In this document: in pieces, positions 3,152-22,249 of the stretch | Layout: each line of letters begins with the position of its first letter | Position numbering within the stretch: the first letter of the stretch is position 1 | Assembly (NCBI RefSeq): GCF_900626135.1 | Contig: NZ_LR130785.1 | Location: forward strand, 629,241-653,240 | DNA from: Senegalia massiliensis | Lineage (GTDB): Bacteria; Bacillota; Clostridia; Tissierellales; SIT17 | Length of the DNA stretch: 24,000 nt | Direction: 5' to 3' | Position numbers and translations under genes: made by a program | Notes under the pieces: model-generated | What the model was told of the DNA's origin: nothing | Seen by the model: the letters and a program-made list of their open reading frames with translations, nothing else | Databases searched by the model: none

Positions 3152-3191
3152 AAATAAATGACTTCTATAATTATAGAAGTCATTTATTTTT
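3152..3191 (+). terminator. Rho-independent terminator (19-bp perfect stem)
   Basis: aaataaatgacttctataa/ttatagaagtcatttattt is perfectly self-complementary around 3170/3171. The 3' arm runs into a T tract. Confidence 0.8.
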
Positions 3192-3246
3192 AATTCAAGT
3201 TAATTAGACCTTATGAGTAATTAAGTATGATAATTTTAAAATAATA

Positions 3247-3274
3247 TTGCATTATATAAAATATATGGTATAAT
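3247..3274 (+). promoter_or_regulatory. Sigma-A type promoter of the yhf-like operon (TTGCAT-16 nt-TGgTATAAT)
   Basis: -35 TTGCAT at 3247-3252. Extended -10 TGgTATAAT with TATAAT at 3269-3274. The predicted transcription start is about 3281, right at the 26-nt repeat. Confidence 0.6.
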
Positions 3275-3281
3275 GAAATTA

Positions 3282-3307
3282 CAATATACAAAAAAATGTA
3301 CATTGAA
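3282..3307 (+). promoter_or_regulatory. 26-nt repeat copy 1 (caatatacaaaaaaatgtacattgaa), candidate operator at +1 of the yhfZ promoter
   Basis: Identical 26/26 to 4266-4291. It contains the palindrome ATGTACAT and the imperfect inverted repeat ATATACA-AAAAA-TGTACAT. Confidence 0.5.
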
Positions 3308-3322
3308 GAAAGGCTAGATACG

Positions 3323-4255
3323 ATGAAGCAATATAAAGATAAATTAATGTCTAAAAATGGAAAAGTTATTATATCCCTTGCTAGAGAAATGTTAACTTAT
3401 TACTTAGATGACAGAATAAAAACAGTAAAAGAATATTCAGAGTCTTACAATACTGCTAGAGGAACTATTCAATCTGCTTTAAAATTTCTTCAAGAAATTA
3501 AAGCAGTAAAATTAGAATCTAGAGGTCATTTAGGCACATATATAGTTGATGTAGATTATGATAAGCTATGGTCTGTTTCAGATTTTAATGTAATAATGGG
3601 TGTTATGCCTTTACCTTATTCTAAAAGATATGAAGGACTAGCTACTGGTTTTTATAAGAACTTTGAAAAAAGGAATATACCTTTTAGTTTAGCTTTTATG
3701 AGAGGTTCAAGTAAAAGGATTGAAGCCTTAACTCTTGGAAGATATAATTTTGCTATTACTTCAAAGTTAGCTGCTAGGTTAGAGATGAGAAAATCTTCTA
3801 ATATTGAAATAGCATATGAATTTGGAGAAGAAAGTTACGTTGGTAGACATGTAATAGTCTTGAGAGATAAGAATAAATTTGAGATAGAAAAAAATATGAG
3901 AGTAGCAATAGATACCCAATCTATTGATCAAATTATATTAACATCTAATGAATGTAAAGATAAAGATATAGAATATATAGAAACTCCTTATAATCAGATA
4001 TTAAATAAGATGAGCAATAATGAAATTGATGCAGCTATTTGGAATGTTGATGAAATAAAAGAAAAAAATTTAGAGTATAATATAGTACCTATGTCTAATA
4101 AAGAGAGTTCAGCTAAAGATGATACTATTGCAGTAGTAGTAATAAGAAAAGACGATAAAGATTTTAGTAATATTTTAAATAGATTTATAGACCTTTATAA
4201 AGTAGAACAGATACAACAAAAGGTAATGAAAGATGAATTGATACCAATTTATTAA
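3323..4255 (+). CDS. yhfZ: YhfZ-like transcriptional regulator (N-terminal wHTH plus C-terminal binding-protein-like domain)
   Basis: About 310 aa, against about 301 aa remembered for E. coli YhfZ. It is the first gene of a cluster holding all other yhf homologs. The track start ATG 3296 lies inside the repeat and has no SD. ATG 3323 is 9 nt after AAGG. Confidence 0.65.
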   Translation: MKQYKDKLMSKNGKVIISLAREMLTYYLDDRIKTVKEYSESYNTARGTIQSALKFLQEIKAVKLESRGHLGTYIVDVDYDKLWSVSDFNVIMGVMPLPYSKRYEGLATGFYKNFEKRNIPFSLAFMRGSSKRIEALTLGRYNFAITSKLAARLEMRKSSNIEIAYEFGEESYVGRHVIVLRDKNKFEIEKNMRVAIDTQSIDQIILTSNECKDKDIEYIETPYNQILNKMSNNEIDAAIWNVDEIKEKNLEYNIVPMSNKESSAKDDTIAVVVIRKDDKDFSNILNRFIDLYKVEQIQQKVMKDELIPIY

Positions 4256-4266
4256 AAATTTATATC
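4238..4266 (+). promoter_or_regulatory. Possible internal promoter (TTGATA-17 nt-TATATC) inside the yhfZ 3' end
   Basis: The spacing is good but the -10 is weak. It abuts repeat copy 2, with different geometry from copy 1. Confidence 0.3.
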
Positions 4267-4291
4267 AATATACAAAAAAATGTACATTGAA
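4266..4291 (+). promoter_or_regulatory. 26-nt repeat copy 2, candidate operator in the yhfZ-yhfY intergenic region
   Basis: Perfect copy of 3282-3307. It ends 13 nt before the yhfY ATG, just 5' of the SD GGAGGTG. Confidence 0.5.
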
Positions 4292-4304
4292 TGGAGGTGT
4301 AATT

Positions 4305-4664
4305 ATGGACGATTTATTAAAACAAAGACTTGAACTTTTAGAACAGGCTAGTGAAATAGATAGTGATATAAAAAATACTGTTATAGAGTTTGCTGACAAA
4401 TTTGAAAAGAAATATTCTTTAGAAATGACTGAAGATAATTCTTCAATGTTAATAACTCACTTAGCTATGGCGTTATCTAGAATTAAAAAAGGTGAAATAG
4501 TAGAAGCTATGGATAGCTTAGCTTTAGATGAGATTAAACAATGCAAAATTTATAATGATTTACCTGAGTTTTATAATGATATTGAGGAAAGGTTAAATAT
4601 AATTTTACCTCAATCAGAAAAGGATTTTATAGCACTTCATGCATGTACTTTAGTACTAAAATAA
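4305..4664 (+). CDS. yhfY: Stand-alone PRD-domain protein (YhfY-like)
   Basis: About 119 aa, against about 120 aa for E. coli YhfY. It is helical, and the segment MLITHLAMALSRIKKGE resembles a PRD phosphorylatable-His helix. The track start TTG 4287 overlaps the repeat. ATG 4305 follows GGAGGTG. Confidence 0.6.
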   Translation: MDDLLKQRLELLEQASEIDSDIKNTVIEFADKFEKKYSLEMTEDNSSMLITHLAMALSRIKKGEIVEAMDSLALDEIKQCKIYNDLPEFYNDIEERLNIILPQSEKDFIALHACTLVLK

Positions 4665-4678
4665 AAGGAGGTAGTATA

Positions 4679-5041
4679 ATGGTTAAATTTGTAGTTGGAG
4701 GACAAGTAGAAAAGCAAAATATCGCTGATCTAATAAAAGAAGTTGGAGGTGAAGATGTAGAAGTAACTGTAAAATCAGATTTACAAGCAGCTAATGATGT
4801 TAAGTCTGGTAAAGCTGATTATTATTTAGGCGCATGTCATACTGGCGGCGGTGGAGCACTTAGCATGGCTATAGCTTTACTTACTAGAGCTAAAACTTCA
4901 ACAATATCTATGCCTGGTAAACCACCTAAAGAAGAAGATATTATAAAAGCTGTAAATGAAGGAAAATTAGCATTTGGTTTTACAGGTGATCATTACGAAA
5001 AAGCAGTTCCTATAATTGTAAGAGAAATTTTAAAAAAATAA
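4679..5041 (+). CDS. yhfU: DUF2620 family protein (YhfU-like)
   Basis: 120 aa, against about 117 aa for E. coli YhfU. It has a beta-alpha N-terminus (KFVVGG) and a Cys-His-Gly-rich loop (YLGACHTGGGGALSMA). AAGGAGG at 4665-4671 precedes ATG 4679; the track start 4643 overlaps yhfY. Confidence 0.6.
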   Translation: MVKFVVGGQVEKQNIADLIKEVGGEDVEVTVKSDLQAANDVKSGKADYYLGACHTGGGGALSMAIALLTRAKTSTISMPGKPPKEEDIIKAVNEGKLAFGFTGDHYEKAVPIIVREILKK

Positions 5042-5057
5042 ATAGAGGAGTGAAAAA

Positions 5058-6338
5058 ATGAAAATAGTAATAATATCATTAATCGGTGCTTTAGCTTCTA
5101 TAATGGCTAACAAAGGTATAGCAGTATTTAATGATGGATTAAGACCTATAGTTCCAGAACATATTGAAGGAAGAATGAGTAGAAAAGAACTTGCAGCTAC
5201 TTCATTTGCTATGAGTTTTGGATTAGTTATAGGATTTGGAATTCCATTCTCATTAACAGCAAGCATTCTTTTAATACATTCAATATTATTAGGTACAGAT
5301 ATAATTGGTACTTTTTCACCAGATGGAAAAAAAGGTTTAGCAATATCAGGAATAGTTGGGGCTCTTTATGGAGCAGGAATATTACTAGGACTCGAAAGTG
5401 TAGTTAAAGCGTTTGAAATGTTACCAGTGAATTTCATGGGAAGTTTAGGTGAAGTTGGAGCTCCAATAGTAATAGCATTTGCAGCATTCCCAGCTCTTGC
5501 TACTGGATATCAATATGGAGCTAAAAAAGGTTTAATAAACTTAGGTTTTTCTATGTTAGCAAGACAAATTGCTATAGTTGTAAGTCCACTTGCAATAGGA
5601 GCAGTTTCAATAAATGTTAACCCTGAAGGTTCAGCACTAATTGTAGGTATGATTATATTAATTATTTATGCAGTAAGGGAAAAATCAGATGAAGAAGCTG
5701 TAGATTTAGTATCAGTATTTGCAGAAAGAGTAAAAAGAATAAAGAAAAATGTACCATATTTAATAGTTATGGGTGCACTTGTAGCAGCTGCTACTTCTTT
5801 AAACTTAATGGCAGGAGATCCTATCTCTCTTAATTTATTAGCAGAAGGTAAGAACATAGATGCAGGCTTTGCAGCTTTAGCTAGAGGTATTGGTTTTATA
5901 CCATTAATAGCATCTACTGCAATAGCAACAGGTGTATATGGTCCTATAGGAATGACTTTTGTATTTGTTGTAGGATTATTTATAGCAAATCCATTTGTAT
6001 CAGCAATTCTTGGTGGACTTGTTATTGGAATAGAAGTATTATTCTTAGATAAAATTTCTAAGTTGTTAGATAAATTCCCAGGCGTTAGAAAGTCTGGAGA
6101 CAATATACGTACTGCAATGTCAAAATTACTTGAAATTGCACTATTAGTTGGAGGTATGAATGCAGCTAATGCAATAGCTCCTGGTATTGGTTTCTTTGTA
6201 GTTATAGGTCTTTATATATTAAATGAAATAGCAGGTAAACCAGTAGTTAAAATGGCTGTAGGTCCTATATCAGCAATATTAGTTGGAGTACTTGCAAATA
6301 TCCTTTCAATTCTAGGGTTATTTACTCCACCAGCATAA
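5058..6338 (+). CDS. yhfT: Polytopic inner-membrane protein (YhfT-like putative transporter)
   Basis: 426 aa, against about 434 aa for E. coli YhfT. It is very hydrophobic and Gly/Ala/Ile-rich, with roughly 10-12 predicted TM segments. RBS GAGGAG. Confidence 0.65.
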   Translation: MKIVIISLIGALASIMANKGIAVFNDGLRPIVPEHIEGRMSRKELAATSFAMSFGLVIGFGIPFSLTASILLIHSILLGTDIIGTFSPDGKKGLAISGIVGALYGAGILLGLESVVKAFEMLPVNFMGSLGEVGAPIVIAFAAFPALATGYQYGAKKGLINLGFSMLARQIAIVVSPLAIGAVSINVNPEGSALIVGMIILIIYAVREKSDEEAVDLVSVFAERVKRIKKNVPYLIVMGALVAAATSLNLMAGDPISLNLLAEGKNIDAGFAALARGIGFIPLIASTAIATGVYGPIGMTFVFVVGLFIANPFVSAILGGLVIGIEVLFLDKISKLLDKFPGVRKSGDNIRTAMSKLLEIALLVGGMNAANAIAPGIGFFVVIGLYILNEIAGKPVVKMAVGPISAILVGVLANILSILGLFTPPA

Positions 6339-6346
6339 AATTATAT

Positions 6347-6384
6347 TTCTAACAAAGTCAAGGATATCCTTGACTTTGTTAGAA
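6347..6384. other. 38-nt perfect palindrome / intercistronic stem-loop (18-bp arms)
   Basis: ttctaacaaagtcaagga-ta-tccttgactttgttagaa. It is not followed by a T tract on the + strand (gataaaaaagg), so it is not a canonical terminator. Confidence 0.7.
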
Positions 6385-6404
6385 GATAAAAAAGGGGAAT
6401 TAGT

Positions 6405-7520
6405 ATGGATGAAACACAAAAAAATATATTATCACAAATGAATAAAGTTAGTAAGGCTATGTTAAAAGCAAAAGAAGAACTAAACAAAAGTGTAGTGTAT
6501 CAAAGAAAAGGTGTTCTAGATCAAGCTGTAATTACTCTTGAAAAAAATCCTAATAGCAATTTAACATTATTTGGCATCAAAAATACAGGTGAAATTGGAA
6601 TTGAGATGGCAATGAAATTAGAAAATGAAGCTGGATATTTTTTTCATACTATAGATAAAATGTCTGAAAGAGGAAGGGCTATAGATATAGACTTAATTAA
6701 TCCATTGACGGGAAGAGTAATGACAGGTTCATCTAGTGGTGGCTGTGTCAATATATTAAAGGGAATAAATGATTTAGCCATAGGTACTGATGGAGGTGGT
6801 TCTGTTTTAGCTCCTGCTATAAGTACTGGTCTTTTTTCAATTATGGCAAAAGGAATGGGGTTAAAAGGAAATAGCATCAAATCTTCAACTGATAATATAA
6901 AATTTACCCCTGGTATAGGAGTAATATCTCATAATTATAATATGTGTAAAATAGCTTTAAATGCACTTGTAGATAAAAATCATAATACAAATAGTAACAA
7001 AAAAATTAGAGTTCTTGTTCCAAAGAAAAATTCCATTACTCTTCCTAATGGTAATGATATGAGAGATGATTTAGAAAGAGTAATAAATCTAATAAAAGAG
7101 TATGTAGAAATTGTGGAAAAAGATTTTACTAGTTTAGAAGATAGACATTCTTCAATTTCTTTCTGTAATAAAATGTTTGATGAAGAGGATATAGATATTA
7201 TTTTATCTGTAGAAGGGCCAATAGATTTATATGGACTAGGTGATTCAGTATTAGGTACATGGGGAGAAGTTGGATCTGAAATACAAAATGACTCTGGTAA
7301 ATATTTATTGAAAATAGCTAATATGATTAATGCTACAGCTGTAAGTATACCTACTTCTGAGCTAGGTATGGGAGTTCTTATTATGGCTAAGGAAGGTTTA
7401 GAAAATGGTGAAATTGCTATAGAGTTAGGAGATAAAATAAGAGAATTATATGATAGACCAGAATTATATAATAGATATTTTATTGAAGAACACAAAAGCA
7501 AAAGTCTAGATTTTATATAA
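6405..7520 (+). CDS. Divergent, short amidase-signature (AS) family protein
   Basis: The AS core is TGSSSGGCVNILKGINDLAIGTDGGGSVLAPA (about nt 6726-6818), matching GGSSGG...G[ST]DxGGSxRxPA. Candidate triad: K59 (FGIKN), S109/S110 and S133. At 371 aa it is shorter than typical amidases of about 450-500 aa. Confidence 0.6.
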   Translation: MDETQKNILSQMNKVSKAMLKAKEELNKSVVYQRKGVLDQAVITLEKNPNSNLTLFGIKNTGEIGIEMAMKLENEAGYFFHTIDKMSERGRAIDIDLINPLTGRVMTGSSSGGCVNILKGINDLAIGTDGGGSVLAPAISTGLFSIMAKGMGLKGNSIKSSTDNIKFTPGIGVISHNYNMCKIALNALVDKNHNTNSNKKIRVLVPKKNSITLPNGNDMRDDLERVINLIKEYVEIVEKDFTSLEDRHSSISFCNKMFDEEDIDIILSVEGPIDLYGLGDSVLGTWGEVGSEIQNDSGKYLLKIANMINATAVSIPTSELGMGVLIMAKEGLENGEIAIELGDKIRELYDRPELYNRYFIEEHKSKSLDFI

Positions 7521-7538
7521 ATAAACAGGAGGTATAAA

Positions 7539-8447
7539 ATGAGTATAATAACTGTAAATGGAGAGATAGATAAAAATAGCTTAGGGTCGACTTATATACA
7601 TGAGCATTTAAGTGTTGATTTATCAGCTCATAAAAAAGATCCTGATACTAATTTTGATGATGTGGAATCATTGATTGATGAGATTAAAAATATAAAAAGT
7701 AAAGGCATAGATAGTATTGTAGAAGTTACAAATAGAGGTATGGGCAGAAATATAGAAGTAATGAAAAGAGTAGCAGATGAAACCGGAATCAATGTTATAG
7801 CTAGTACAGGATTTTATAAGGAACCTTTCTTGCCATCATATGTATATGAAATGGAAGAAAAAGAGTTAAGTAAGCTTTTAATAAAAGATCTTACAGAAGG
7901 AATAGATAATACTGATATTAAAGCCCATGTAATAGGTGAAATTGGTACTAGTAAGGATACTATGACAGATATGGAACATAAAATATTTAGAGTAGCAGCT
8001 AGAGCTCATCTTGAAACTGGTAGAGTTTTCTCTACTCATACTACATTAGGAACCTATGCTATAAAACAAATAGAATTTATGAAAAAACACAATATTGATC
8101 TTAGTAAAGTAGTTATAGGTCATTTAGATTTAAACTGTGATTCCGATTATCATTTAAGAATTGCTGATAATGGATGCTATTTAGCTTTTGATACAATAGG
8201 AAAAAATAATTATGAGAAAGATGAAGTACGTGTTAAATATATAAAGAATTTAATAGATAGAGGACATTTAAATCAAATAGTACTTTCTCAAGATATAACT
8301 AGAAAATCTCATTTAAAAATGAATGGTGGTATTGGTTATGATCATTTAATAGATAATTTTATACCAAAGCTTTTAGAGGCAGGAATAACACAATCACAAA
8401 TTGATAAAATGTTAAAAGAAAATCCACGTGAATTATTGGATATATAG
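7539..8447 (+). CDS. php: Phosphotriesterase homology protein (Php/YhfV-like amidohydrolase-superfamily enzyme)
   Basis: 302 aa. HxH metal motif TYIHEHL. VIGEIGTS carries a Glu where phosphotriesterases have the carbamylated Lys, as in E. coli Php. The further ligands STHT, IGHLD and LSQD are present. Confidence 0.82.
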   Translation: MSIITVNGEIDKNSLGSTYIHEHLSVDLSAHKKDPDTNFDDVESLIDEIKNIKSKGIDSIVEVTNRGMGRNIEVMKRVADETGINVIASTGFYKEPFLPSYVYEMEEKELSKLLIKDLTEGIDNTDIKAHVIGEIGTSKDTMTDMEHKIFRVAARAHLETGRVFSTHTTLGTYAIKQIEFMKKHNIDLSKVVIGHLDLNCDSDYHLRIADNGCYLAFDTIGKNNYEKDEVRVKYIKNLIDRGHLNQIVLSQDITRKSHLKMNGGIGYDHLIDNFIPKLLEAGITQSQIDKMLKENPRELLDI

Positions 8448-8458
8448 GGGGAATATAG

Positions 8459-9565
8459 ATGAAAGCATATCCTATAGAGACTATTAATATAGATAAGGCA
8501 AAAGAAAAACAATTTAAACTAGTTGATATAATTCATCAACATTTTGATGGTTATGAATTTCTCCAAAATGGAGATATGGGTGTAGTGCCAGGTGTAGGTG
8601 GTCCAAAATATACTAGAAAAGTAGAAAGTGTATTAGCAGATTTTTTTGGTTCAGAAGATGCTGTTTTAGTTCGTGGCTCAGGTACTGGAGCTATAAGAAA
8701 TGTAATGAATACAGTATTAAAACCTAATCAAAAAATATTAATTCATGATGCACCAATATATCCAACTACAAAAGTAATAATTGATAGTATGGGAATTGAA
8801 ACTATTAAAGTTAATTTTAATAATATTTCAGAAAAAGATGAAGAAAAAATTAGAAATATAGACTTTGCTCTAGTTCAACATTCAAGGCAAAAATTAGATG
8901 ATAGCTATAATTTAGAAGATGTAATAAACAAAATTAAAAAGGTTAATAAAAATATAAATATATTAGTAGATGATAACTATGTTGTAATGAAAGCTGATAA
9001 AATAGGCGTAGAACTTGGAGCAAGTGCAAGTGCTTTTTCATTATTCAAATTATTAGGACCAGCAGGAATAGGTTGTGTTGTTGGTAATACAGAAATAATA
9101 GAGAAAATAAGGAATATTAACTATTCTGGCGGTAGTCAAGTTCAAGGATATGAAGCTATGGATGCTTTAAGGTCATTAGTATATGCACCTGTTTCACTAG
9201 CAATTCAAGCTGAAGAAGGAAATAAAATTATAGATACATTAAATTCAGGAAAAATTAAAGGGGTAAAATCTTCTCTTATTGCAAATGCACAATCAAGAGT
9301 TATATTAGTTGAGTTTGATGAACCTATAGCAAAAAAAGTTTTAGAATATAGTTCAAAATTAGGGGCAGCTCCTTACCCAATTGGAGCTGAATCTAGATAT
9401 GAAGTTACTGCTATGTTTTATAGAGTTTCTGGGACGTTTTTGAAATCTAATCCTAAGTTAGAAGATTATATTATACGTATAAATCCAATGAGAGCAGGTT
9501 CAAAAACTGTTCTTAGAGTATTAGAGCAAGCTATAGAAATGGCCCTTCAAAGAGGTGATAATTAG
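8459..9565 (+). CDS. yhfS: YhfS-like fold-type-I PLP-dependent enzyme
   Basis: 368 aa, against about 361 aa for E. coli YhfS. Motifs: GSGTGAIRN, VDDNY and SAFSLFKLLGP (candidate PLP lysine). Confidence 0.65.
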   Translation: MKAYPIETINIDKAKEKQFKLVDIIHQHFDGYEFLQNGDMGVVPGVGGPKYTRKVESVLADFFGSEDAVLVRGSGTGAIRNVMNTVLKPNQKILIHDAPIYPTTKVIIDSMGIETIKVNFNNISEKDEEKIRNIDFALVQHSRQKLDDSYNLEDVINKIKKVNKNINILVDDNYVVMKADKIGVELGASASAFSLFKLLGPAGIGCVVGNTEIIEKIRNINYSGGSQVQGYEAMDALRSLVYAPVSLAIQAEEGNKIIDTLNSGKIKGVKSSLIANAQSRVILVEFDEPIAKKVLEYSSKLGAAPYPIGAESRYEVTAMFYRVSGTFLKSNPKLEDYIIRINPMRAGSKTVLRVLEQAIEMALQRGDN

Positions 9566-10741
9566 ATGTTTTTAGATATGACAATAAAAAGAAATGAAAA
9601 CTTAATAAAATCTGCAATAGACCTTCATAAAAATGGTCTAATTAAACCTAATTCATATGTATTAGATATAGATTCTATAAGAGAAAATGCATCTAAATTA
9701 GCTAAGAAAGCAAAAGAATTAAATATAGAATTATATATGATGACAAAACAAATAGGTAGAAATCCTAAAGTTGCTGAAATAATAGCAGAAAGTGGTATCA
9801 AAAAAGCTGTAGCTGTAGACCCATGGGAAGCTATAAGACTAGCAGAATCTGGAGTGAAACTTGGAAATGTAGGTCATTTGGTGCAAATACCTACTAGTAT
9901 GATTAGACAAATTCTATCTTATAAGCCTGAAGTAATAACAGTATTTACATTAGATAAAGCAATAGAAATTTCAGAACAGGCTATAAAATTAGGAATGGTT
10001 CAAGATATATTATTAAAAGTTGTAGGAGAAAATGATAGATTATATCCAGGACAAATAGGTGGATTTAAAGAAAAAGAACTTATACAATATGCAGATAAAA
10101 TAAGAAAATTAAAGGGAGTAAATATAGTAGGAGTTACTGCTTTTCCATGCTTTTTATATAATTATGAAGCGAATAAAATAGAACCTACAAAAAATGCTCA
10201 TACAGCTATAAGATGTGCAAACATGTTAAAGGAAAAGTTAGATATCAACATAAAACAAGTAAATATTCCTAGTGCTAATACTATAGCTTCATTACCATTA
10301 TTAAAAGATATGGGAGGTACTCATGGAGAGCCAGGTCATGCTTTAACAGGTACTACACCTCTTCATGGTGACAATATATTAGAAGAAAAACCTGCTATGG
10401 TTTATGTAAGTGAAATATCACATTGTTTTGATGATAAGGCATATGTATATGGTGGTGGCTTTTATAGAAGATCTAGAATGAAAAAGGCTATGGTAGGTAA
10501 AGATTTTGAAAAGATGAAAGAAAATATATTTGAAATAGAAGAAATTGATCCTGAAGCTATAGACTATTACGGTACGTTAAAACTTGGAAATAAAAGTGTA
10601 GAAGTAGGAGATACAGTAATATATGCTTTTAGAACACAAATATTTGTAACAAGAAGTGAAGTAGTTTTAGTTGAAGGAATACAAAAAAACAATCCTAAAA
10701 TTATTGGAGTTTATGATAGTCAAGGAAATGAAATACGATAA
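9566..10741 (+). CDS. yhfX: YhfX-like fold-type-III PLP enzyme (alanine-racemase N-terminal-domain family)
   Basis: 391 aa, against about 387 aa for E. coli YhfX. YMMTKQIGRNP holds the candidate PLP lysine. The ATG directly abuts the yhfS stop (TAG ATG). Confidence 0.65.
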   Translation: MFLDMTIKRNENLIKSAIDLHKNGLIKPNSYVLDIDSIRENASKLAKKAKELNIELYMMTKQIGRNPKVAEIIAESGIKKAVAVDPWEAIRLAESGVKLGNVGHLVQIPTSMIRQILSYKPEVITVFTLDKAIEISEQAIKLGMVQDILLKVVGENDRLYPGQIGGFKEKELIQYADKIRKLKGVNIVGVTAFPCFLYNYEANKIEPTKNAHTAIRCANMLKEKLDINIKQVNIPSANTIASLPLLKDMGGTHGEPGHALTGTTPLHGDNILEEKPAMVYVSEISHCFDDKAYVYGGGFYRRSRMKKAMVGKDFEKMKENIFEIEEIDPEAIDYYGTLKLGNKSVEVGDTVIYAFRTQIFVTRSEVVLVEGIQKNNPKIIGVYDSQGNEIR

Positions 10742-10758
10742 ACAAGGTGGTGACAAAA

Positions 10759-11967
10759 TTGAAAAAAAGAGCAATAATATTAATATTAGATAGCTTAGGT
10801 GTTGGATATATGGATGATGTAGAAGAAACTAGACCTCAAGATATAGGTGCAAATACTTTTAAGCATATATTAGATAATGCTAAAAATATAGAAATACCTA
10901 ATTTAGAAAAGCTAGGCATAAATAAGATAGTAAAGCATAATAGACTTAAGGAAACTAAAAATAAAGCTAGTTATGGTAAATTAAATCTTAAGCACTATGG
11001 AGCAGATAGTTATGCAGGTCATCAAGAGATTATGGGAACTGATCCAAAAAAACCTTTGATGAAACCTTTTGTGTATTATATAGATAAAGTAAAATCAGCT
11101 TTAGAAGAGGCAGGATATAAGGTTCAAATACCAAATAAAGAAAAACCATATATATTGGTAAATGAATTAGTAGTAGTTGCGGACAATATAGAGACAGATT
11201 ATGGACAGATATATAATATAAGTGCTCCACTTGATTATATATCCTTTGACGAAGTTATGGAAATTGGAAAGATTGTAAGAAAAAATGTAGAAGTGAATAG
11301 AGTTATAGCTCTAGGTGGTAGAGATGTAAAACTAGAACAATTAATTGATAGTATAGAGCAAAGGGAAGATGGTTTAGTTGGTGTTAATTCTCCTAAATCA
11401 GGAGTGTATAAATCAGATTATCATGCAAGGCATATGGGATATGGTGTTGACCCTGAAAAACAAATTTCATCTATATTATCAAATTCAGATAAAGAAGTTA
11501 CTTTGATTGGCAAAATGCAAGATGTTATTGAATGTAGTGATGCAACTAAAATACCTGCAGTTGATACAGAACTAGTAATGGAAAAAATATTAGTTAGTCT
11601 TGATAATATGAATGAAGGGTTAATATCAGCTACAGTTCAAGAAACAGATTTAAGAGGACATGCACAAGATGTAGAAGGATATGCTGAAAAGATAATGATT
11701 GTAGATAAATATTTAGAAAGCATATTAGAAAAAATGACTGACGAAGATATTTTATTTATAAGCGCAGATCATGGAAATGACCCTACAAGTGATAATAGTC
11801 AACATACTAGAGAAAAGACATTTTTATTGGTATATGGTAAAAATATAAAAAATGTTAATATAGGTGAAAGAAAAACTCTCTCAGATATATCAGCTACAAT
11901 AGCAGATTATTTTAAGGTAAATAAGCCTGAGAATGGTGAAAGTTTTTATGATATGTTAGTTGAGTGA
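10759..11967 (+). CDS. yhfW: YhfW-like phosphopentomutase-family (alkaline-phosphatase superfamily) mutase
   Basis: MKKRAIILILDSLGVGYM resembles the DeoB N-terminus. GADSYAGHQE aligns with DeoB GKDTxTGHWE, placing Ser at the phospho-acceptor position. ISADHGNDPT matches the ADHGxDP metal motif. TTG 10759 is 8 nt after AAGGTGG; the track start is GTG 10747. Confidence 0.75.
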   Translation: MKKRAIILILDSLGVGYMDDVEETRPQDIGANTFKHILDNAKNIEIPNLEKLGINKIVKHNRLKETKNKASYGKLNLKHYGADSYAGHQEIMGTDPKKPLMKPFVYYIDKVKSALEEAGYKVQIPNKEKPYILVNELVVVADNIETDYGQIYNISAPLDYISFDEVMEIGKIVRKNVEVNRVIALGGRDVKLEQLIDSIEQREDGLVGVNSPKSGVYKSDYHARHMGYGVDPEKQISSILSNSDKEVTLIGKMQDVIECSDATKIPAVDTELVMEKILVSLDNMNEGLISATVQETDLRGHAQDVEGYAEKIMIVDKYLESILEKMTDEDILFISADHGNDPTSDNSQHTREKTFLLVYGKNIKNVNIGERKTLSDISATIADYFKVNKPENGESFYDMLVE

Positions 11968-12304: not shown

Positions 12305-12502
12305 ATGAATGGTACAGTAAAATGGTTTAACGCAGAAAAAGGATTTGGATTTATCACAGGAGAAGACGGAAAAGATGTATTCGCTCACTTTTCTCAAATT
12401 CAAAAAGATGGTTTCAAAACTTTAGAAGAAGGTCAAGAAGTAGAATTTGACGCAGTTGAAGGACAAAAAGGTCTTCAAGCAGAAAATATCGTTGCTAAAT
12501 AA
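12305..12502 (+). CDS. Cold-shock protein, CspA family (single CSD)
   Basis: 65 aa. RNP1 KGFGFI and RNP2 VFAHF motifs are present. RBS AGGAGG. Confidence 0.95.
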
Positions 12503-12512
12503 TTGATATTTC

Positions 12513-12546
12513 AACCCTAGGATATAATATATTCTAGGGTTTTTTG
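12513..12546 (+). terminator. Rho-independent terminator of csp
   Basis: The stem aaccctagga/ttctagggtt is followed by tttttg. Confidence 0.8.
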
Positions 12547-12846: not shown

Positions 12847-14427
12847 TTGATAAAAGTTATTATAGCAGACGATGAAAAAAGAATATTAAAACTCATAGAA
12901 AAATTAATTCAATGGGAAAAATTAGGTCTACAAATTGTAGGAAAAGCTAATGATGGTATAGAAGCAATAGAGCTTATAAAAGAAAAGAAGCCAAATATAG
13001 TTATTACTGATATTCGTATGCCTGGTTATGATGGCTTAGAAATGATAGAAAGAGCAAGAAATATAGATGAAAATTTACAGTTTATTATCATAAGTGGATA
13101 TGAACAATTTGAATATGCTAAAAAGGCAATAGGCTTTGGAGTAAAGGATTATTTATTAAAACCTATAAATAAACAAAAACTCACTAGAACATTAATTAAT
13201 GTAAAAAAACATATCAAAGAAAATATTGATATAGAAATTGTAAAGAAAGATGTTAATTTAATAAGAACATCTTTTTTAAATAATGCTCTTTTTAAAAATG
13301 AAGGATTAAATAATACTAATGTATCTCAAGTTAATGAAAAATATCATTTTAACTTTATAGAAAAATATTTTAATGTTGTTTTATTTAAAATTGATTATAA
13401 TACAAAACTATATAATGATATAACAGTTATGACTACAGAAATAGTTAATATAATCAAAGAAAACTTAAAATCAGATGTAAATGAATGTGAAATTATAACA
13501 AACAAAAATAATATATATTTAATATTAAATTATAATTTAAAACAATTAGAAAATATTGAAATATCCATACAACAGGTGCATAAAAAAATAATTGAGTATA
13601 TTATCGGAATAAAGAATTTTCAAGTAACCATTTCATATGGAAGTCAAGCTCAGAAAATTAATGATCTAAATATTTCTTTCCATGATTCTAATTCAATTAT
13701 TGAAGATAGAATACTTTATGGTAAAAACAAAATATATAAATATAAAGAAATATTACCTATAAAAAAAGAGGTAGAAGATATATTTTATGTTTTTTTCAAA
13801 AGATTTATAAAGTATGTGGAAATGTTAGATTATGCAAAAATAGAATATAGTTTTATGAAATTTAAGCAAGATATAAGCAATATGCCTTTAAGAGGAATAA
13901 ATTTAAAAGATTTTTTTCAGGAACTATTTAAAGCATACTATTTAGTATTAAAAAACAATAAATTCAAAAAGAATAATTTAAGTGAAGAACATAAAGATAT
14001 TAAAAATATTATTGATAATTCAGATTCAATAGACGGATTATTTAGTGATTCATTACAATATTTATTAGAAGATATAAATTCAATAACTAAAAAAAGCTTT
14101 CAAAATAATATGATAGAAATAATAAAAGCTAAAGAATTTATAGAAAAAAATTATATGGAAAATATAAAGTTAGAAGACGTAGGAAACTATATAGGATTTA
14201 ATCCAAGTTATTTTAGTAGTGTTTTTAAAAAAGAAACAGGCACTTCCTTTGTAGAATATCTTTCAATGGTAAGAATAGAAAAAGCCAAAGAATTATTAAA
14301 GGAATCTGATCTTAAGATTCAAGATATATCTAGTATGATTGGCTATAATGATTCTAAATATTTTACTAAGACATTTATAAAATATAGTGGCTTAAAACCA
14401 AAAGAATATAGAAAACTATTCGTGTAG
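12847..14427 (+). CDS. Response regulator, REC plus AraC-type HTH output (YesN-like) with an unusually long middle region
   Basis: REC motifs DD(8-9), D55 in VITDIRMPGYDG, and LLKP. The C-terminal AraC HTH pair runs YFSSVFKKETG...YFTKTFIKYSGLKPKEYR. TTG start is 9 nt after AGGAG. About 300 Asn/Lys/Ile-rich residues lie between the two domains. Confidence 0.88.
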   Translation: MIKVIIADDEKRILKLIEKLIQWEKLGLQIVGKANDGIEAIELIKEKKPNIVITDIRMPGYDGLEMIERARNIDENLQFIIISGYEQFEYAKKAIGFGVKDYLLKPINKQKLTRTLINVKKHIKENIDIEIVKKDVNLIRTSFLNNALFKNEGLNNTNVSQVNEKYHFNFIEKYFNVVLFKIDYNTKLYNDITVMTTEIVNIIKENLKSDVNECEIITNKNNIYLILNYNLKQLENIEISIQQVHKKIIEYIIGIKNFQVTISYGSQAQKINDLNISFHDSNSIIEDRILYGKNKIYKYKEILPIKKEVEDIFYVFFKRFIKYVEMLDYAKIEYSFMKFKQDISNMPLRGINLKDFFQELFKAYYLVLKNNKFKKNNLSEEHKDIKNIIDNSDSIDGLFSDSLQYLLEDINSITKKSFQNNMIEIIKAKEFIEKNYMENIKLEDVGNYIGFNPSYFSSVFKKETGTSFVEYLSMVRIEKAKELLKESDLKIQDISSMIGYNDSKYFTKTFIKYSGLKPKEYRKLFV

Positions 14428-14436
14428 GTGTGTGAA

Positions 14437-15450
14437 ATGAAATTTAAAAAAGATAATTATTATTTATTAGATAGAATATGGATACTTTTTATTATTAATT
14501 TTGTAGCAAATATTATAGTTTTTATATATTTATTATTTAATATTGAAACTATAAGTAATTATATTTTTTTAGCATTATGGTCTATTTTTATAATTGGAAT
14601 AGTTTATATTTCATATAAATGGGTCTATGAACCACATAAAAAGATAGCTAAAGTTTTAAAATTATTTTATAAAGGAGATATCTTCAAAGGTGTATTTAGT
14701 CTTAGAGTGCATATAAGTCATGAAACATATAAGACCTTTGCAAAGTTTAGAGAAATAATAGATACAAAAGAACTTATAGAAGGTTCCAAAAAACATGCTG
14801 AATATTTAGCACTTCAAAATCAAATCAACCCTCATTTTCTATATAATACCCTTGAAGCAATAAGGAGTGAGGCATTAATAGAAGAGGTTGATAGTATAGC
14901 AGATATGACAGAGTCTCTAGCAACATTTTTTAGATATACAATTTCAAATATATCTAAACTTGTTACTCTTAGTGATGAATTAGAAAATTTGAAAAATTAT
15001 TATAAGATTCAAAAGTTTAGATTTGATGATAAAATAAATTTAAATATTAAATATGAGATAGATGATATAGGACAAGCATTGAGAGCTAAAATCCCTAAAT
15101 TAACTTTACAACCTATTTGTGAGAATGCAATATTTCATGGATTAGAAACAAAGGTTGGTAAAGGAGAAATAACTTTAAGAATTAGAGCTACTGAAAAAAG
15201 ACTTATTATTTTAATATCAGATAATGGTGTAGGAATTGATGAAAAAAAAGTTGATAAAATAAATAAAAAACTTAGAGGAGCATCCTTAGAATATATGAAA
15301 AAAGATAGTAATAATCAAGGTGGTATAGCCTTGATTAATGTAAATAACAGAATAAAACTTATTTTTGGTGATGAATATGGTATTTATATGTATAGTAGGT
15401 TAGGTGCTGGAACTGATGTTGAAATAACTATACCATTTGTATTAGATTAA
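14437..15450 (+). CDS. Sensor histidine kinase, YesM/LytS-type (His_kinase PF06580-like plus HATPase_c), two TM helices with a loop of about 7 residues
   Basis: H-box LQNQINPHFLYNTLEAI, N-box ENAIFHGL, G-boxes DNGVGI and GGIALINV. TM1 ILFIINFVANIIVFIYLLF and TM2 YIFLALWSIFIIGIVYISY are separated only by NIETISN. The track start GTG 14428 abuts the upstream stop; ATG 14437 follows TAGGTG. Confidence 0.85.
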   Translation: MKFKKDNYYLLDRIWILFIINFVANIIVFIYLLFNIETISNYIFLALWSIFIIGIVYISYKWVYEPHKKIAKVLKLFYKGDIFKGVFSLRVHISHETYKTFAKFREIIDTKELIEGSKKHAEYLALQNQINPHFLYNTLEAIRSEALIEEVDSIADMTESLATFFRYTISNISKLVTLSDELENLKNYYKIQKFRFDDKINLNIKYEIDDIGQALRAKIPKLTLQPICENAIFHGLETKVGKGEITLRIRATEKRLIILISDNGVGIDEKKVDKINKKLRGASLEYMKKDSNNQGGIALINVNNRIKLIFGDEYGIYMYSRLGAGTDVEITIPFVLD

Positions 15451-15478
15451 TTTTAAATTTAAATAAAAGGTTGATATT

Positions 15479-16888
15479 ATGAATGGAGAAATTTTAAGAA
15501 TAGAAAATGTTAGTAGGAAGATTGACGGTATTACCTATTTAAATAATATAAATTTTAATATAAGAAAAGGAGAAATATTAGGGTTATTGCCTCTTGATAA
15601 TCATGGTAAAGAACAGCTTATTGAGTTAATTATTAAAAATTTAAATATTGATTATGGAAGAGTATATTTTGATGAAAAGCTTGTAAATTATTATGAATAT
15701 AGTGATATGCAATATAATGAGGTTTATGTTATTGATAAAAACACAAAATTAATCTCTGGGTTGAAAGTTATTGATAATATCTATGTATTAAATAATACTC
15801 TAAATCAGTTTATTATAAATGAAAATATATTAAGGAAAAAGGCAAAATCTATTTTTGAACATTTTGATTTAGACATTAATCCAGATAAATATATTTCTGA
15901 TTTATCTAAATTTGAGAAAGTTGTTGTTGAAGTTATAAAGGCTGTTATAAATGGTGCTAAATTAATAATTTTAAACGAATTATCTAATTTTCTAAGTATA
16001 AATGAGTTATATAATTTTCAGAAATTAATTAAATATTATTCTAAGAAAGACATTTCATTTCTTTACATGGCAAATCATCATGAAGAAGCATTTAAGATAT
16101 GTAATAGAGTTTGTCTTTTAGAAGATGGGAAAATAGTAAAAGTGATAGAAAAAAATGATTATTCTGATGAAATTATGTTACCTTATATAGTTGAGTTTGA
16201 TAGTAATACAAATTCTAATATATCAGATAATGAAAATACTATTATTGGATTTGAAGATTTTACTACCACTAATGTTTATAAGCTCAATATAAGGATAAAT
16301 AAAGGTGAATGTATAACCATACTTGATAAAGATAATAAAGGAATTCAAGATATAGTTGAATTTTTAAAGGGAAATCTGACACTTATTGATGGGAATATAA
16401 TCTTTAATAGAAAAACAATTAAATCTATAAGAAATCTTAATTCTCTTATAGAAAATGAAATATTATTTATACCAGAAAATCCAATAGATAATTTTTTGTT
16501 TTTTAATATGTCTTATTTAGAAAATCTAATGTTTCTTTTAGAACAAAAGCTAAATAATAATATTTCATTTAGAAAGAAAATAAAAATACTTAAAGAAAAA
16601 TATAAAATATTAGAAGATGTAGATATAGATGAAAATGATATTTCTAATTTAAGTAAAAAATCTCTGTACGATTTAATATATTTTAAAGTTTATGAATTTA
16701 AACCTAAGTTAGTTTTTCTAATGCAGCCTTTTTCTGGTGCAGATATGTATTTAAGAGCTAGAATAATTCAATTAATAAATAAACTTAAAAATGAAGGTAT
16801 AACAATTATAATTCTTGCTGTAAGCTTATCAGATACTTTAACTGTATCAGATAGACTTATAACTATAAAAGATGATAGTATTTTTTGA
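15479..16888 (+). CDS. Degenerate tandem-NBD ABC ATPase paralog (RbsA/MglA-like fold, catalytic motifs lost in both halves)
   Basis: It aligns along its length with the next gene, but the motifs differ. Walker A is LPLDNHGKEQ against GENGAGKST, and LDKDNKGIQ against GLMGAGRTE. Q-loop is VIDK against IHQE. Signature is LSKFEK against LSVSKQ, and LSKKSLYD against LSGGNQQK. Walker B is LIILNELS against ILIMDEPT, and LVFLMQPF against IVIFDEPT. Confidence 0.8.
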   Translation: MNGEILRIENVSRKIDGITYLNNINFNIRKGEILGLLPLDNHGKEQLIELIIKNLNIDYGRVYFDEKLVNYYEYSDMQYNEVYVIDKNTKLISGLKVIDNIYVLNNTLNQFIINENILRKKAKSIFEHFDLDINPDKYISDLSKFEKVVVEVIKAVINGAKLIILNELSNFLSINELYNFQKLIKYYSKKDISFLYMANHHEEAFKICNRVCLLEDGKIVKVIEKNDYSDEIMLPYIVEFDSNTNSNISDNENTIIGFEDFTTTNVYKLNIRINKGECITILDKDNKGIQDIVEFLKGNLTLIDGNIIFNRKTIKSIRNLNSLIENEILFIPENPIDNFLFFNMSYLENLMFLLEQKLNNNISFRKKIKILKEKYKILEDVDIDENDISNLSKKSLYDLIYFKVYEFKPKLVFLMQPFSGADMYLRARIIQLINKLKNEGITIIILAVSLSDTLTVSDRLITIKDDSIF

Positions 16889-16958
16889 AAACCTTTTTAA
16901 AATCTAATGAATGTCCCCCTAAATCAAAAGAATATCTACCTCGTCGTATTATTAGTTA

Positions 16959-16967
16959 TGGTACTAT
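16959..16967 (+). promoter_or_regulatory. Possible activator-dependent promoter of the ABC operon (TGgTACTAT, no -35)
   Basis: Extended -10 at 16959-16967. The -35 position reads cctcgt, consistent with dependence on an AraC-type activator. This is weak evidence. Confidence 0.3.
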
Positions 16968-16997
16968 GTATTTAAATAATAATAACAAAGATATTTA

Positions 16998-18554
16998 ATG
17001 AAGAAAGTAGGGGTTCTTTTGAGTAATTATGCTGTTAAAATAGAAAACGTTTCCAAAAGTTTTCCAGGTGTTAAGGCACTTGATAATGTATCATTCGATT
17101 TGAAATCTGGAGAAGTCTTAGCTTTACTTGGTGAAAATGGAGCAGGGAAGTCTACTCTTATGAAAATATTATCAGGAGTTTATACAAAAGATAGTGGTAC
17201 TATAAATATATTTGGTGAAACTATTGAAGATATGAATCCAGTTAAAGCACAGGAATTAGGTATTGCAATTATACATCAGGAGTTAAATATGTGTGATCAT
17301 TTAACTGTAGCTCAAAATATTTTTTTAGGTAGAGAGATATCTAAAAAGGGTGTTTTGTCTGAGAAAAAGATGAATATAGAAGCAAAAGAAATATTAAATA
17401 AATTAAATATAGCTATAGATCCAGAGGCTTTAGTAGGAGACTTATCTGTATCAAAGCAACAGATGGTTGAAATCGCAAAGGCTCTATCAACTAATGCAAA
17501 AATACTTATTATGGACGAACCTACATCTGCTTTAACTTCTAAAGAAATAGATGATTTGTTTAAAATAATAAAAAAATTGAAATCAGAAGGTCATGGAATA
17601 GTATACATATCTCATAGATTAGAAGAATTAGAACATATAGTGGATAGAGTTACTGTATTAAGAGATGGACAATATATTACTTCTTTAGATTTTAAAGAAA
17701 CTACACTTAAAGAAATTATATCCTATATGGTTGGAAGAGAAATAAAAGAAAAATTTCCTAGAATCAAAAGTGATGTGGGAAAGAAAATATTCGAAGTTAA
17801 GAATTTAAGTGCTGGTAATTTAGTAAGAGATATTAATTTTTCAGTATTTGAAGGAGAAATAGTTGGAATAGCTGGTTTAATGGGGGCAGGAAGAACTGAG
17901 ATGACTAGAGCAATATTTGGAGCAGATTCTAAACGTTCAGGAAAAATTTTCATTGACGGCGTTGAAGTAAGTATTAATAAGCCTATAGATGCTATTAAGT
18001 CAGGAATAGTTCTTGCTCCTGAAGATAGAAAAAATGATGGATTATGTACAAAGCTTAGTATAAGAGAAAATATCTCTCTTCCAAATCTTGACTTATTAGC
18101 TCATAAATTCGGTATAGTGAATAGCAAAAAAGAAGAGGAAATGATTCAAAAAGCAGTAGAAAATTTAGATATAAGACTTGCAAGTGCTGAAGTTAATGCC
18201 GATAGTCTATCTGGTGGAAATCAGCAAAAAGTTGTAGTAGGTAAATGGCTTTCAAGAAATTCAAGAATTGTAATTTTTGACGAACCTACAAGAGGAATAG
18301 ATGTAGGATCTAAAGTTGAAATTTATAATTTGATGAATGAATTAAAAAGCAAGGGTATTGGAGTACTTTTTGTTTCTTCTGAGATGCCAGAAGTGTTAGG
18401 TATTAGTGATAGAATTTTAGTTATGGCTGAAGGTAAAATAACTAAAGAACTTGATATAAAAGATGCTACACAAAATATTATTTTAGAGTATGCTACTAAA
18501 TTTGACAAAAAGATTAACAATGAACAGATTAACAAAGTGGAGGCGAGTATTTAA
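16998..18554 (+). CDS. Sugar ABC transporter ATP-binding protein, CUT2 family, two intact NBDs (RbsA/MglA-like)
   Basis: GENGAGKST, LSVSKQQ, ILIMDEPT and ISHRL in NBD1. GLMGAGRTE, LSGGNQQK and IVIFDEPTRGID in NBD2. The true start may be TTG 17019 (MSNYAVKIENVSKSF), 5 nt after TAGGGG. ATG 16998 has no SD. Confidence 0.92.
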   Translation: MKKVGVLLSNYAVKIENVSKSFPGVKALDNVSFDLKSGEVLALLGENGAGKSTLMKILSGVYTKDSGTINIFGETIEDMNPVKAQELGIAIIHQELNMCDHLTVAQNIFLGREISKKGVLSEKKMNIEAKEILNKLNIAIDPEALVGDLSVSKQQMVEIAKALSTNAKILIMDEPTSALTSKEIDDLFKIIKKLKSEGHGIVYISHRLEELEHIVDRVTVLRDGQYITSLDFKETTLKEIISYMVGREIKEKFPRIKSDVGKKIFEVKNLSAGNLVRDINFSVFEGEIVGIAGLMGAGRTEMTRAIFGADSKRSGKIFIDGVEVSINKPIDAIKSGIVLAPEDRKNDGLCTKLSIRENISLPNLDLLAHKFGIVNSKKEEEMIQKAVENLDIRLASAEVNADSLSGGNQQKVVVGKWLSRNSRIVIFDEPTRGIDVGSKVEIYNLMNELKSKGIGVLFVSSEMPEVLGISDRILVMAEGKITKELDIKDATQNIILEYATKFDKKINNEQINKVEASI

Positions 18555-19570: not shown

Positions 19571-19621
19571 ATTAAGTTATTAAAGGGAAACCTTTAAAAA
19601 TAAAAAAATGGAGGGAATAAA

Positions 19622-20554: not shown

Positions 20555-20573
20555 TAGAGTTCCAAAATAAATT

Positions 20574-20600
20574 AGAGAGGTTACAAAAGTAACCTCTTTA
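20574..20600 (+). terminator. Stem-loop after the binding-protein gene (weak terminator or mRNA stabiliser)
   Basis: agaggttac-aaaa-gtaacctct followed only by ttta. The next gene's SD begins 11 nt later, so read-through is likely. Confidence 0.45.
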
Positions 20601-20622
20601 AACTATATATGAGGTGATATTA

Positions 20623-21273: not shown

Positions 21274-21276
21274 TTT

Positions 21277-22227: not shown

Positions 22228-22249
22228 TTTAAATTAAGGGAGGCTTACT

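Follow-up and report, generated by a model that had tools for sequence, protein, structure and literature searches.

The yhf genes of Escherichia coli K-12, arranged as yhfZ-yhfY-yhfX-yhfW-php-yhfU-yhfT-yhfS (b3376–b3383, function unknown), are long-standing genes of unknown function that are spread over many bacteria. The E. coli cluster is annotated, and the protein families it encodes have already been catalogued, albeit with no function assigned. The SFCGS or EF_0830-type clusters (PF14272, DUF4312, DUF4311, DUF4310; TIGR03577), with which we compare the yhf genes below, are also uncharacterised. Here, we analysed a yhf cluster of Senegalia massiliensis, a member of the Clostridia with a 2.87-Mb genome of ~29% G+C, in a stretch of 24,000 nucleotides (nt) from contig NZ_LR130785.1 (positions 629,241–653,240 of the forward strand; hereafter the window, within which all positions are counted). 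This cluster encodes the same eight protein families as its E. coli counterpart, with the models for YhfZ_full, the stand-alone phosphotransferase system (PTS) regulation domain (PRD-only), DUF2620, YhfT and PTE scoring above their cut-offs in the comparison, and both clusters share the yhfU-yhfT and the yhfZ-yhfY adjacency. They differ in gene order and content: the window operon consists of nine plus-strand genes arranged head to tail (3296–11967) in the order Z-Y-U-T-amidase-php-S-X-W, and thus contains an extra, amidase-like gene.

Our interest lies in three of these proteins—YhfY, YhfU and YhfT. In the reading that we prefer, while holding it to be evenly poised between right and wrong, they make up an uptake module that belongs to the yhf catabolic operon and is driven or gated by the PTS, with YhfU carrying a phosphoryl group on Cys53 and YhfT serving as the permease. 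What we establish directly is the gene content, how well residues are conserved, the fold assignment, the linkage between genes and their co-occurrence with those of the PTS. An initial annotation of this DNA had placed three genes at 4305–6338 on the plus strand, and both the genes and their domain calls proved right. Together with the adjoining regulator gene, they are:

3296-4255, plus strand: yhfZ, GntR-type winged helix-turn-helix (HTH_41, PF14502) plus YhfZ_C (PF14503); NCBIfam NF041241 YhfZ_full, 404 bits against a cut-off of 260
4305-4664, plus strand: yhfY, 119 amino acids (aa), a single PRD (PF00874)
4679-5041, plus strand: yhfU, 120 aa, DUF2620 (PF10941)
5058-6338, plus strand: yhfT, 426 aa, polytopic membrane protein (PF10797)

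The yhfU gene lies 14 nt after yhfY and 16 nt ahead of yhfT, with a Shine-Dalgarno sequence in each gap. Like YhfZ_full, the models for DUF2620 (159 against 25 bits) and YhfT (594 against 26 bits) lie above their curated cut-offs, and php, yhfS, yhfX and yhfW (7539–11967) co-occur with yhfZ, yhfU and yhfT in one cluster, as they do in E. coli and in 80 related loci. The window cluster is an ordinary, intact member of an orphan family, and it is the family that is of interest.

A PRD-only protein next to an invariant cysteine

To our knowledge, PRDs are known only as domains phosphorylated by the PTS, and they are regulatory in every characterised case. YhfY is read from the ATG at 4305, preceded by a GGAGGTG ribosome-binding site, up to the stop at 4664. 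Its sole Pfam match is the PRD PF00874 (50.0 bits against a cut-off of 23); none of the RNA- or DNA-binding domains that are fused to PRDs in regulators of the BglG/LicT and MtlR/LevR types was found, and with only 119 aa the protein has no space for one. The initial description of a stand-alone PRD of about this length, encoded between yhfZ and yhfU and devoid of a nucleic-acid-binding domain, was therefore accurate. In alignments to LicT and GlcT, His52 (codon 4458–4460) and His112 (codon 4638–4640) match the pair of phosphorylatable histidines in PRD1 of LicT. Among YhfY proteins adjoining yhfU, His52 is conserved in 75/75 and His112 in 74/75; the E. coli protein keeps the first histidine but, unlike YhfY of the window, lacks the second, which is replaced by asparagine.

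The true start of yhfU is the ATG at 4679, located behind AAAGGAGG, rather than that of the longer open reading frame (ORF) from 4643. The protein contains a glycine-rich loop, GACHTGGGGA (residues 51–60; nt 4829–4858), whose Cys53 is encoded at 4835–4837. This cysteine is invariant in 45 close homologues (58–84% identity). An exhaustive search across 1.84 billion cluster representatives further provided a more distant set, reduced to 76 sequences by clustering at 50% identity; here Cys53 is present in 71 sequences, and the five without it resemble frameshifted fragments. Conservation extends to Thr or Ser at position 55 (72/76) and to Gly56 (75/76), but not to His54, which occurs in just 8/76 and is outnumbered by Asn, Gln and Ala. 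The E. coli loop, GACNTGAGAA, differs from that of the window and has Asn at the position of His54. The family motif is thus G-x-C-x-[TS]-G-[GA]-G-[GA]-A-L, and of the Cys-His pair that had looked invariant at first sight, the cysteine stands and the histidine does not.

An AlphaFold2 model of YhfU based on the 45-sequence alignment (predicted local distance difference test, pLDDT, 96; predicted template modelling score, pTM, 0.90) consists of five successive strand-helix units. Strand 3 ends with Cys53, after which come the glycine loop and, from residue 57 onward, a helix. YhfU does therefore have a trait of enzyme IIB (EIIB) proteins, namely an invariant cysteine in a glycine-rich loop at the N-terminus of a helix.

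As the initial annotation had stated, the gene after yhfU encodes a polytopic membrane protein. YhfT has ~11–12 hydrophobic segments, a basic central loop (residues 207–232) and an invariant N-terminal loop, FNDGLRP..PE..EGRM; the signal for an internal repeat is weak (E = 0.007, probability 5%). Sequence and profile searches of the PDB with YhfY, YhfU and YhfT returned marginal matches only, namely LicT (E = 0.017) and 2ppw, an uncharacterised ‘conserved domain protein’ (E = 0.96).

Conservation of the Y-U-T block

The 80 related yhf loci were taken from species-representative genomes of Clostridia, Bacilli and relatives. Incomplete contigs aside, yhfZ, Y, U, T, php, S, X and W are present in every one of them. 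Since the same genes recur in all 80 loci, their arrangement is not due to chance. In 74/80 loci, yhfU is directly preceded by a YhfY-type ORF, and again in 74/80, or in 75 when L084 (290 nt) is counted, it is directly followed by yhfT. The exceptions to the latter adjacency are L032, L033 and L042, which have the order U-S-T, as well as L030 and L007. In L007, from Anaeromonas gelatinilytica, yhfU and yhfT are separated by a 3.9-kb insert (L007:6501-10373) that may be a mobile element; its 361-aa ORF is also found in two other loci.

The three genes stay together where the cluster has been rearranged. A Bacillaceae group has the order Z-php-S-W-X-amidase-Y-U-T, such that the intact Y-U-T block is 6–7 kb away from yhfZ (for example in L035, L040, L058, L062 and L076–L078). 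Moreover, the two soluble components occur as a single 267-aa DUF2620-PRD fusion, detected on 14 contigs from three sources, in which a low-complexity linker joins the domains and the cysteine and both histidines are intact. Two other apparent fusions, PTE-DUF2620 and DUF2620-YhfT (P0258, P0309), were discounted as singletons on one or two contigs and probable frameshifts or read-throughs.

Across the 80 loci, we found no kinase, whether in the conserved genes of the cluster or in the gene clusters that most commonly flank it, nor any other conserved transporter in the clusters. The enzymes of this kinase-less cluster resemble enzymes acting on phosphorylated substrates: Php, YhfW and—in 11/80 loci—the product of a NagB/6-phosphogluconolactonase-family gene located after yhfW.

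PTS genes in the vicinity of yhf clusters

Among the plus-strand ORFs of at least 80 aa in the window (plus a 65-aa csp ORF), none matched a PTS family, in line with the first impression that EIIA and HPr genes are missing from this stretch. Elsewhere, the source genome encodes one enzyme I (EI), two HPr proteins and several PRD regulators. In three related loci, L006 (the closest relative), L015 and L031, an HPr gene sits at the 3′ end of the yhf cluster on the same strand. In Paenibacillus tyrfis (L061:16165-18133), genes for both HPr and EI follow yhfW with gaps of ~25–40 nt; this genome harbors five EI paralogues, so that the HPr-EI pair appears to be dedicated to the yhf cluster. By a rough estimate, an HPr gene would be expected by chance within a 20-kb window in ~1% of cases, and each of those observed is at the 3′ end of the cluster.

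EI is encoded in 49/50 yhfU-carrying genomes as compared with 110/295 (37%) good-quality genomes sampled from the phylum of the window. This enrichment is inflated, because genomes that are related do not count as independent samples, because Bacilli were included and because of life-style. The only carrier of the 50 without a detectable EI is G301, the genome of L006, whose yhf cluster ends with an HPr gene; G301 is a draft assembly, so its EI may simply be unassembled.

A sister system with the same pair of soluble proteins

SFCGS is rare, being present in 2/301 genomes sampled, and we surveyed 33 loci of this kind (L127, L128 and L129–L159), two from genomes and 31 from metagenomes, with many of the 33 being too short to show flanks. 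The clusters encode, in this order, an MtlR-type PRD activator, an amidohydrolase, a PRD-only protein, SFCGS, the soluble DUF4312 protein, the membrane proteins DUF4311 and DUF4310, a DgaE-like pyridoxal phosphate (PLP) lyase and a 2-keto-3-deoxygluconate-6-phosphate (KDGP) aldolase, and some contain a HAD phosphatase gene as well. Directly upstream of SFCGS is an ORF of 110–130 aa with both PRD histidines, including in 14/15 loci where tblastn had missed it. HPr and/or EI genes flank the cluster on the same strand in 6/33 loci (L128, L133, L134, L135, L138 and L156).

SFCGS and YhfU align over their full length in hhalign (E = 6.9e-5), cysteine upon cysteine, as expected of distant homologues, and 39/45 YhfU members give a weak match to PF14272 (Gly_rich_SFCGS). 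The YhfU of the window scores below the cut-offs of both SFCGS models (18.9 against 27.3 bits for PF14272; 19 against 141 for TIGR03577). On the strength of these profile comparisons, we regard YhfU as a distant homologue of the SFCGS family and not as a member of it.

The Salmonella enzymes DgaE and DgaF have D-glucosaminate-6-phosphate and KDG-6-P as their substrates, the phosphate being supplied by the mannose-type PTS DgaABCD (PMC9529869). The SFCGS clusters encode Dga-like enzymes, and neither a kinase nor a canonical enzyme II (EII) was found among their conserved genes. The only step left over is therefore uptake with phosphorylation, and the only proteins left over are the PRD-only, cysteine and membrane proteins. 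Carried over by analogy and distant homology, this observation makes the strongest case that YhfY, YhfU and YhfT have the same role in the yhf system. Two further ideas were considered in this context. DUF4312 is unlikely to be a hidden EIIA: although soluble, the protein shows neither a conserved His nor a conserved Cys. YhfT (426 aa) was tried as a fusion of DUF4311 (~212 aa) and DUF4310 (~209 aa), which the lengths would allow, and hhalign probabilities were <1% both for single sequences and for profiles of 25–26 sequences.

The sister system also bears on the suggestion, made in the initial annotation, that YhfY reports transport status to YhfZ. We do not favor this idea, because the constant partner of the PRD-only protein is the cysteine protein: the two remain together in rearranged loci and in the sister system, one lineage has them as a fusion protein, and the SFCGS clusters retain a PRD-only protein although their regulator has PRDs of its own.

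A model for PTS-driven uptake

The general proposal made at the outset, that of a PTS-linked module for uptake and regulation, has real comparative support in the conserved PRD histidines, the Y-U-T block, the fusion of YhfU with YhfY, the phospho-type enzymes of a kinase-less cluster, the HPr and EI neighbors, the presence of EI in carriers and the sister system. Its structural part, by which YhfU and YhfT would resemble an EIIB/EIIC pair, did not withstand the fold and profile comparisons given in the following section.

For this module, we infer all phosphotransfer steps, the contact between YhfU and YhfT and the nature of the substrate as follows. Phosphoenolpyruvate would phosphorylate EI and EI in turn HPr, and HPr would hand the phosphoryl group to Cys53 of YhfU, either directly or via a histidine of YhfY. 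The glycine-rich loop at the N-terminus of the helix would cradle the phosphoryl group on Cys53. YhfU would then dock on YhfT and phosphorylate the substrate—probably an amino-sugar-like compound—upon entry, and the phosphorylated product would feed the kinase-less enzymes, namely the phospho-lactonase-like Php, the phosphomutase-like YhfW, the two PLP enzymes and, in some relatives, the NagB-like enzyme. If the model is right, this would be a PTS enzyme II built from different parts, in which YhfU is no classical EIIB and YhfT no classical EIIC.

YhfY may act either as a phosphocarrier between HPr and the cysteine protein or as a brake on the transporter. In a bolder version, which strikes us as rather unlikely, the PRD-only protein, rather than serving the transcription regulator as an adaptor, would be the missing phosphocarrier, equivalent to EIIA, of an unrecognised class of PTS enzyme II. 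Phosphoryl groups would pass from HPr to the PRD histidine, on to the cysteine of the RpiB-fold protein and finally to the substrate at a membrane protein whose fold is so far absent from the PDB, with yhf and SFCGS representing two branches of this class.

Points against the PTS model and rival explanations

Several results weigh against PTS-driven uptake, beginning with the fold of YhfU. In a Foldseek comparison of the YhfU model with the PDB, the top three matches were RpiB ribose-5-phosphate isomerases (3s5p, 6fxl and 5ifz; TM 0.64–0.69, probability 1.0). CheY-like receivers and flavodoxins reached TM 0.45–0.52, and the lactose EIIB 3nbm, at rank 41, was no better (TM 0.50). Alignment of 86 YhfU with 30 RpiB sequences in hhalign gave E = 6.7e-5 (probability 64%), with Cys53 and Thr55 falling on the catalytic Cys and Thr of the RpiB C-G-T-G motif; a shallow YhfU alignment matched against a single RpiB sequence gave nothing. 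None of the 45 YhfU members matched PTS_IIB (PF02302), even at E = 10, and the cysteine is at the end of strand 3, as opposed to the strand-1 P-loop of Cys-type EIIB proteins. The proposed likeness of YhfU to EIIB thus did not hold up: YhfU is a shortened, diverged branch of the RpiB/LacAB fold in which only the Cys-x-Thr-Gly loop has been retained, and it is no EIIB by descent or topology.

The companion claim, that YhfT resembles EIIC, found no more support. Searches of 35 YhfT members at E ≤ 10 against the EIIC profiles (Glc/Fru/Lac, Asc/Gat, Man) yielded no match, only PF10797 and noise. Foldseek against the PDB returned no EIIC either (best probability 0.28, all TM ≤0.18), a negative that is not absolute as the YhfT model has a pLDDT of 79. 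By the tests applied, YhfT is therefore not an EIIC; judging from the model, it may have a fold not yet solved. Nor is there detectable homology between YhfT and DUF4311 or DUF4310, and the analogy between the yhf and SFCGS systems consequently rests on their two soluble components.

The PTS genes themselves also provide counterarguments. HPr is found beside the yhf cluster in as few as 4/80 loci, and not in the window; the cluster has no EIIA, and a canonical phosphocarrier that would link HPr to YhfU is missing. The co-occurrence with EI, inflated as it is, would be equally expected if YhfY were a purely regulatory input. Finally, we found no functional study of the yhf or the SFCGS/DUF families in the searchable literature.

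The fold of YhfU lends itself to a different explanation, which we consider possible but on the unlikely side. YhfU would be a soluble pathway enzyme—either a sugar-phosphate isomerase of a divergent RpiB type or some other enzyme that depends on a cysteine—and YhfT an ordinary secondary carrier; YhfY would bring in PTS or catabolite status, for example by modulating YhfZ or YhfT, and a kinase would be encoded elsewhere. Besides the RpiB matches in fold and catalytic residues, this is suggested by the SFCGS relatives, which almost reach the Pfam threshold for LacAB_rpiB (24.2 and 21.3 against 24.7 bits), by the other sugar-phosphate-type enzymes in the cluster, and by the three loci with yhfS between yhfU and yhfT. 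However, the hhalign alignment has a gap in YhfU opposite the S-D-H segment of RpiB, so that the Asp-His pair after strand 1 is missing, and YhfU ends at residue 120, ~28 residues before the C-terminal phosphate-binding helix. The genome's own RpiB, a 148-aa protein encoded elsewhere, has this Arg/His-rich helix, with a G-R-H-E-R-R tail. All told, three of the four RpiB active-site elements are lost in YhfU, to which its tight linkage to a PRD is to be added. Moreover, LacAB_rpiB (PF02502) is matched by 0/45 YhfU members, and with its genuine RpiB the genome already has such an isomerase. A role as an isomerase would also leave unexplained why the cysteine protein constantly adjoins a PRD-only protein and is fused to it in one lineage, and why HPr and EI genes lie beside sister clusters that have neither a kinase nor a step requiring an isomerase.

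Quite improbable, in our view, is that the trio is a sensing device, with YhfT as a membrane receptor (transceptor) whose state is relayed by YhfU and YhfY, together with PTS status, to YhfZ and with a transporter located elsewhere: this would suit the regulatory role of the characterised PRDs known to us, the adjacency of yhfZ and yhfY in the window and most loci, and the lack of a match between YhfT and a known transporter fold, but the 80 clusters contain no other conserved transporter, YhfZ has a ligand-binding-type domain of its own, Y-U-T is apart from yhfZ in rearranged loci, and the sister system keeps the pair of PRD-only and cysteine proteins under a different regulator that already bears PRDs.

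Remainder of the operon and its surroundings

The other features of the cluster are:

3152-3189, no strand: upstream palindrome, 17-bp stem (24-nt arm) plus T run, between a GATase1-like gene and yhfZ
6347-6384, no strand: post-yhfT palindrome, 17-bp stem, directly 3′ of the yhfT stop and 5′ of the amidase-like gene
6405-7520, plus strand: amidase-like ORF, 371 aa; PF01425 at 23.5 bits, below cut-off
7539-8447, plus strand: php (yhfV), phosphotriesterase-family amidohydrolase; PF02126 at 303 bits; NF007373 at 331 bits, below the cut-off of 486
8459-9565, plus strand: yhfS, fold-type-I PLP enzyme; PF22475 YhfS-like_C at 150 bits
9566-10741, plus strand: yhfX, PLP protein with alanine-racemase fold; PF21279 and PF01168
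10747-11967, plus strand: yhfW, mutase-like metalloenzyme of the phosphopentomutase/alkaline-phosphatase superfamily; PF01676 at 110 bits

YhfZ, the presumed transcription regulator of the cluster, shows a likeness to periplasmic binding proteins in its YhfZ_C domain. The amidase-like ORF constitutes a ninth member of the Gram-positive yhf clusters: it occurs in about half of the 80 loci, either between yhfT and php or before yhfY, and is absent from E. coli. A gene for a beta-lactamase-family hydrolase is a recurrent extra in 18/80 loci. The php product has a sub-threshold NCBIfam match to phospho-furanose lactonase (NF045706, 123 bits).

The closest named relative is Anaeromonas frigoriresistens, with 91% identity in YhfT. 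At the DNA level, the window is collinear with its closest relative L006 (79% identity) from 3236 to 11949, where collinearity ends; it begins just past the upstream palindrome. This palindrome is probably the end, or terminator, of an upstream unit comprising rihA-like, M20 deacylase and GATase1-like genes. The palindrome behind yhfT is possibly a partial terminator or attenuator that divides the transport half from the enzyme half of the operon and sets their transcript ratio, or else a protein-binding site. A promoter scan carried no information in the AT-rich DNA of the window (61 sites against 63.5 expected).

The last gene held in common with relatives is yhfW. It is followed by a cold-shock protein gene (12305–12502) with its own terminator (12513–12541), which occupies the place 3′ of yhfW where we looked for, and did not find, a remnant of a nagB-like or HPr gene. 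The rihA-like nucleoside hydrolase gene at 154–1095, upstream of the yhf cluster, has counterparts downstream of yhfW in four Bacillaceae loci (L044, L054, L060 and L075; at ~16.3–17.5 kb). Together with the phosphopentomutase-like YhfW, this neighbor may hint at a ribosyl-containing substrate. The region 12847–23128 harbors an unrelated sugar-utilisation unit made up of an AraC-type response regulator, a His_kinase-family sensor, a sugar transporter of the ATP-binding cassette (ABC) type (one permease, one binding protein and two genes for ATPases), a SIS-domain protein and a pair of ROK-family kinases.

Comparison with known systems

Were the module to prove a PTS-type permease, the PTS, whose catalogue is considered complete, would gain a further enzyme II architecture, the PRD would have a role outside transcription control, and an isomerase fold would be seen to have been co-opted as a phosphocarrier. 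The source of phosphorylated intermediates in a kinase-less pathway would likewise be explained, and the search for the nutrient narrowed.

For YhfY, the PDB holds a protein of the same build: 3nuf, a 119-aa ‘PRD-containing transcription regulator’, likewise consists of a single PRD of ~119 aa without any other domain, although the sequence similarity between the two is marginal (E = 0.29). YhfU shares with the RpiB/LacAB isomerases (PF02502) the five-stranded alpha/beta fold, the order of its elements and a C-x-T-G loop whose cysteine closes strand 3. It differs from them in lacking the Asp-His after strand 1 and the C-terminal phosphate-binding helix and in its length (120 against ~148 aa), and yhfU, unlike the isomerase genes, is always found beside genes for a PRD-only protein and a membrane protein. 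With the Cys-type EIIB and EIIC systems (e.g., 3nbm), the yhf module has in common a small alpha/beta protein with an invariant cysteine before a glycine-rich loop and helix. Further shared features are the location of its gene next to those of a polytopic membrane protein and a PRD, the linkage to HPr and EI in some genomes and the kinase-less pathway downstream. It departs from these systems in that the fold similarity of YhfU is generic (TM 0.50), YhfT is unrelated to any EIIC, and EIIA is absent.

The SFCGS system comes with the same layout as yhf, in which a PRD-only gene directly upstream of the gene for a cysteine-loop protein is followed by one or more membrane protein genes, accompanied by PLP and amidohydrolase enzymes, without a kinase and at times with adjacent HPr or EI. 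What sets it apart is a membrane part of two proteins plus the soluble DUF4312, an MtlR-type PRD activator in place of YhfZ, and DgaE-like and KDGP aldolase enzymes.

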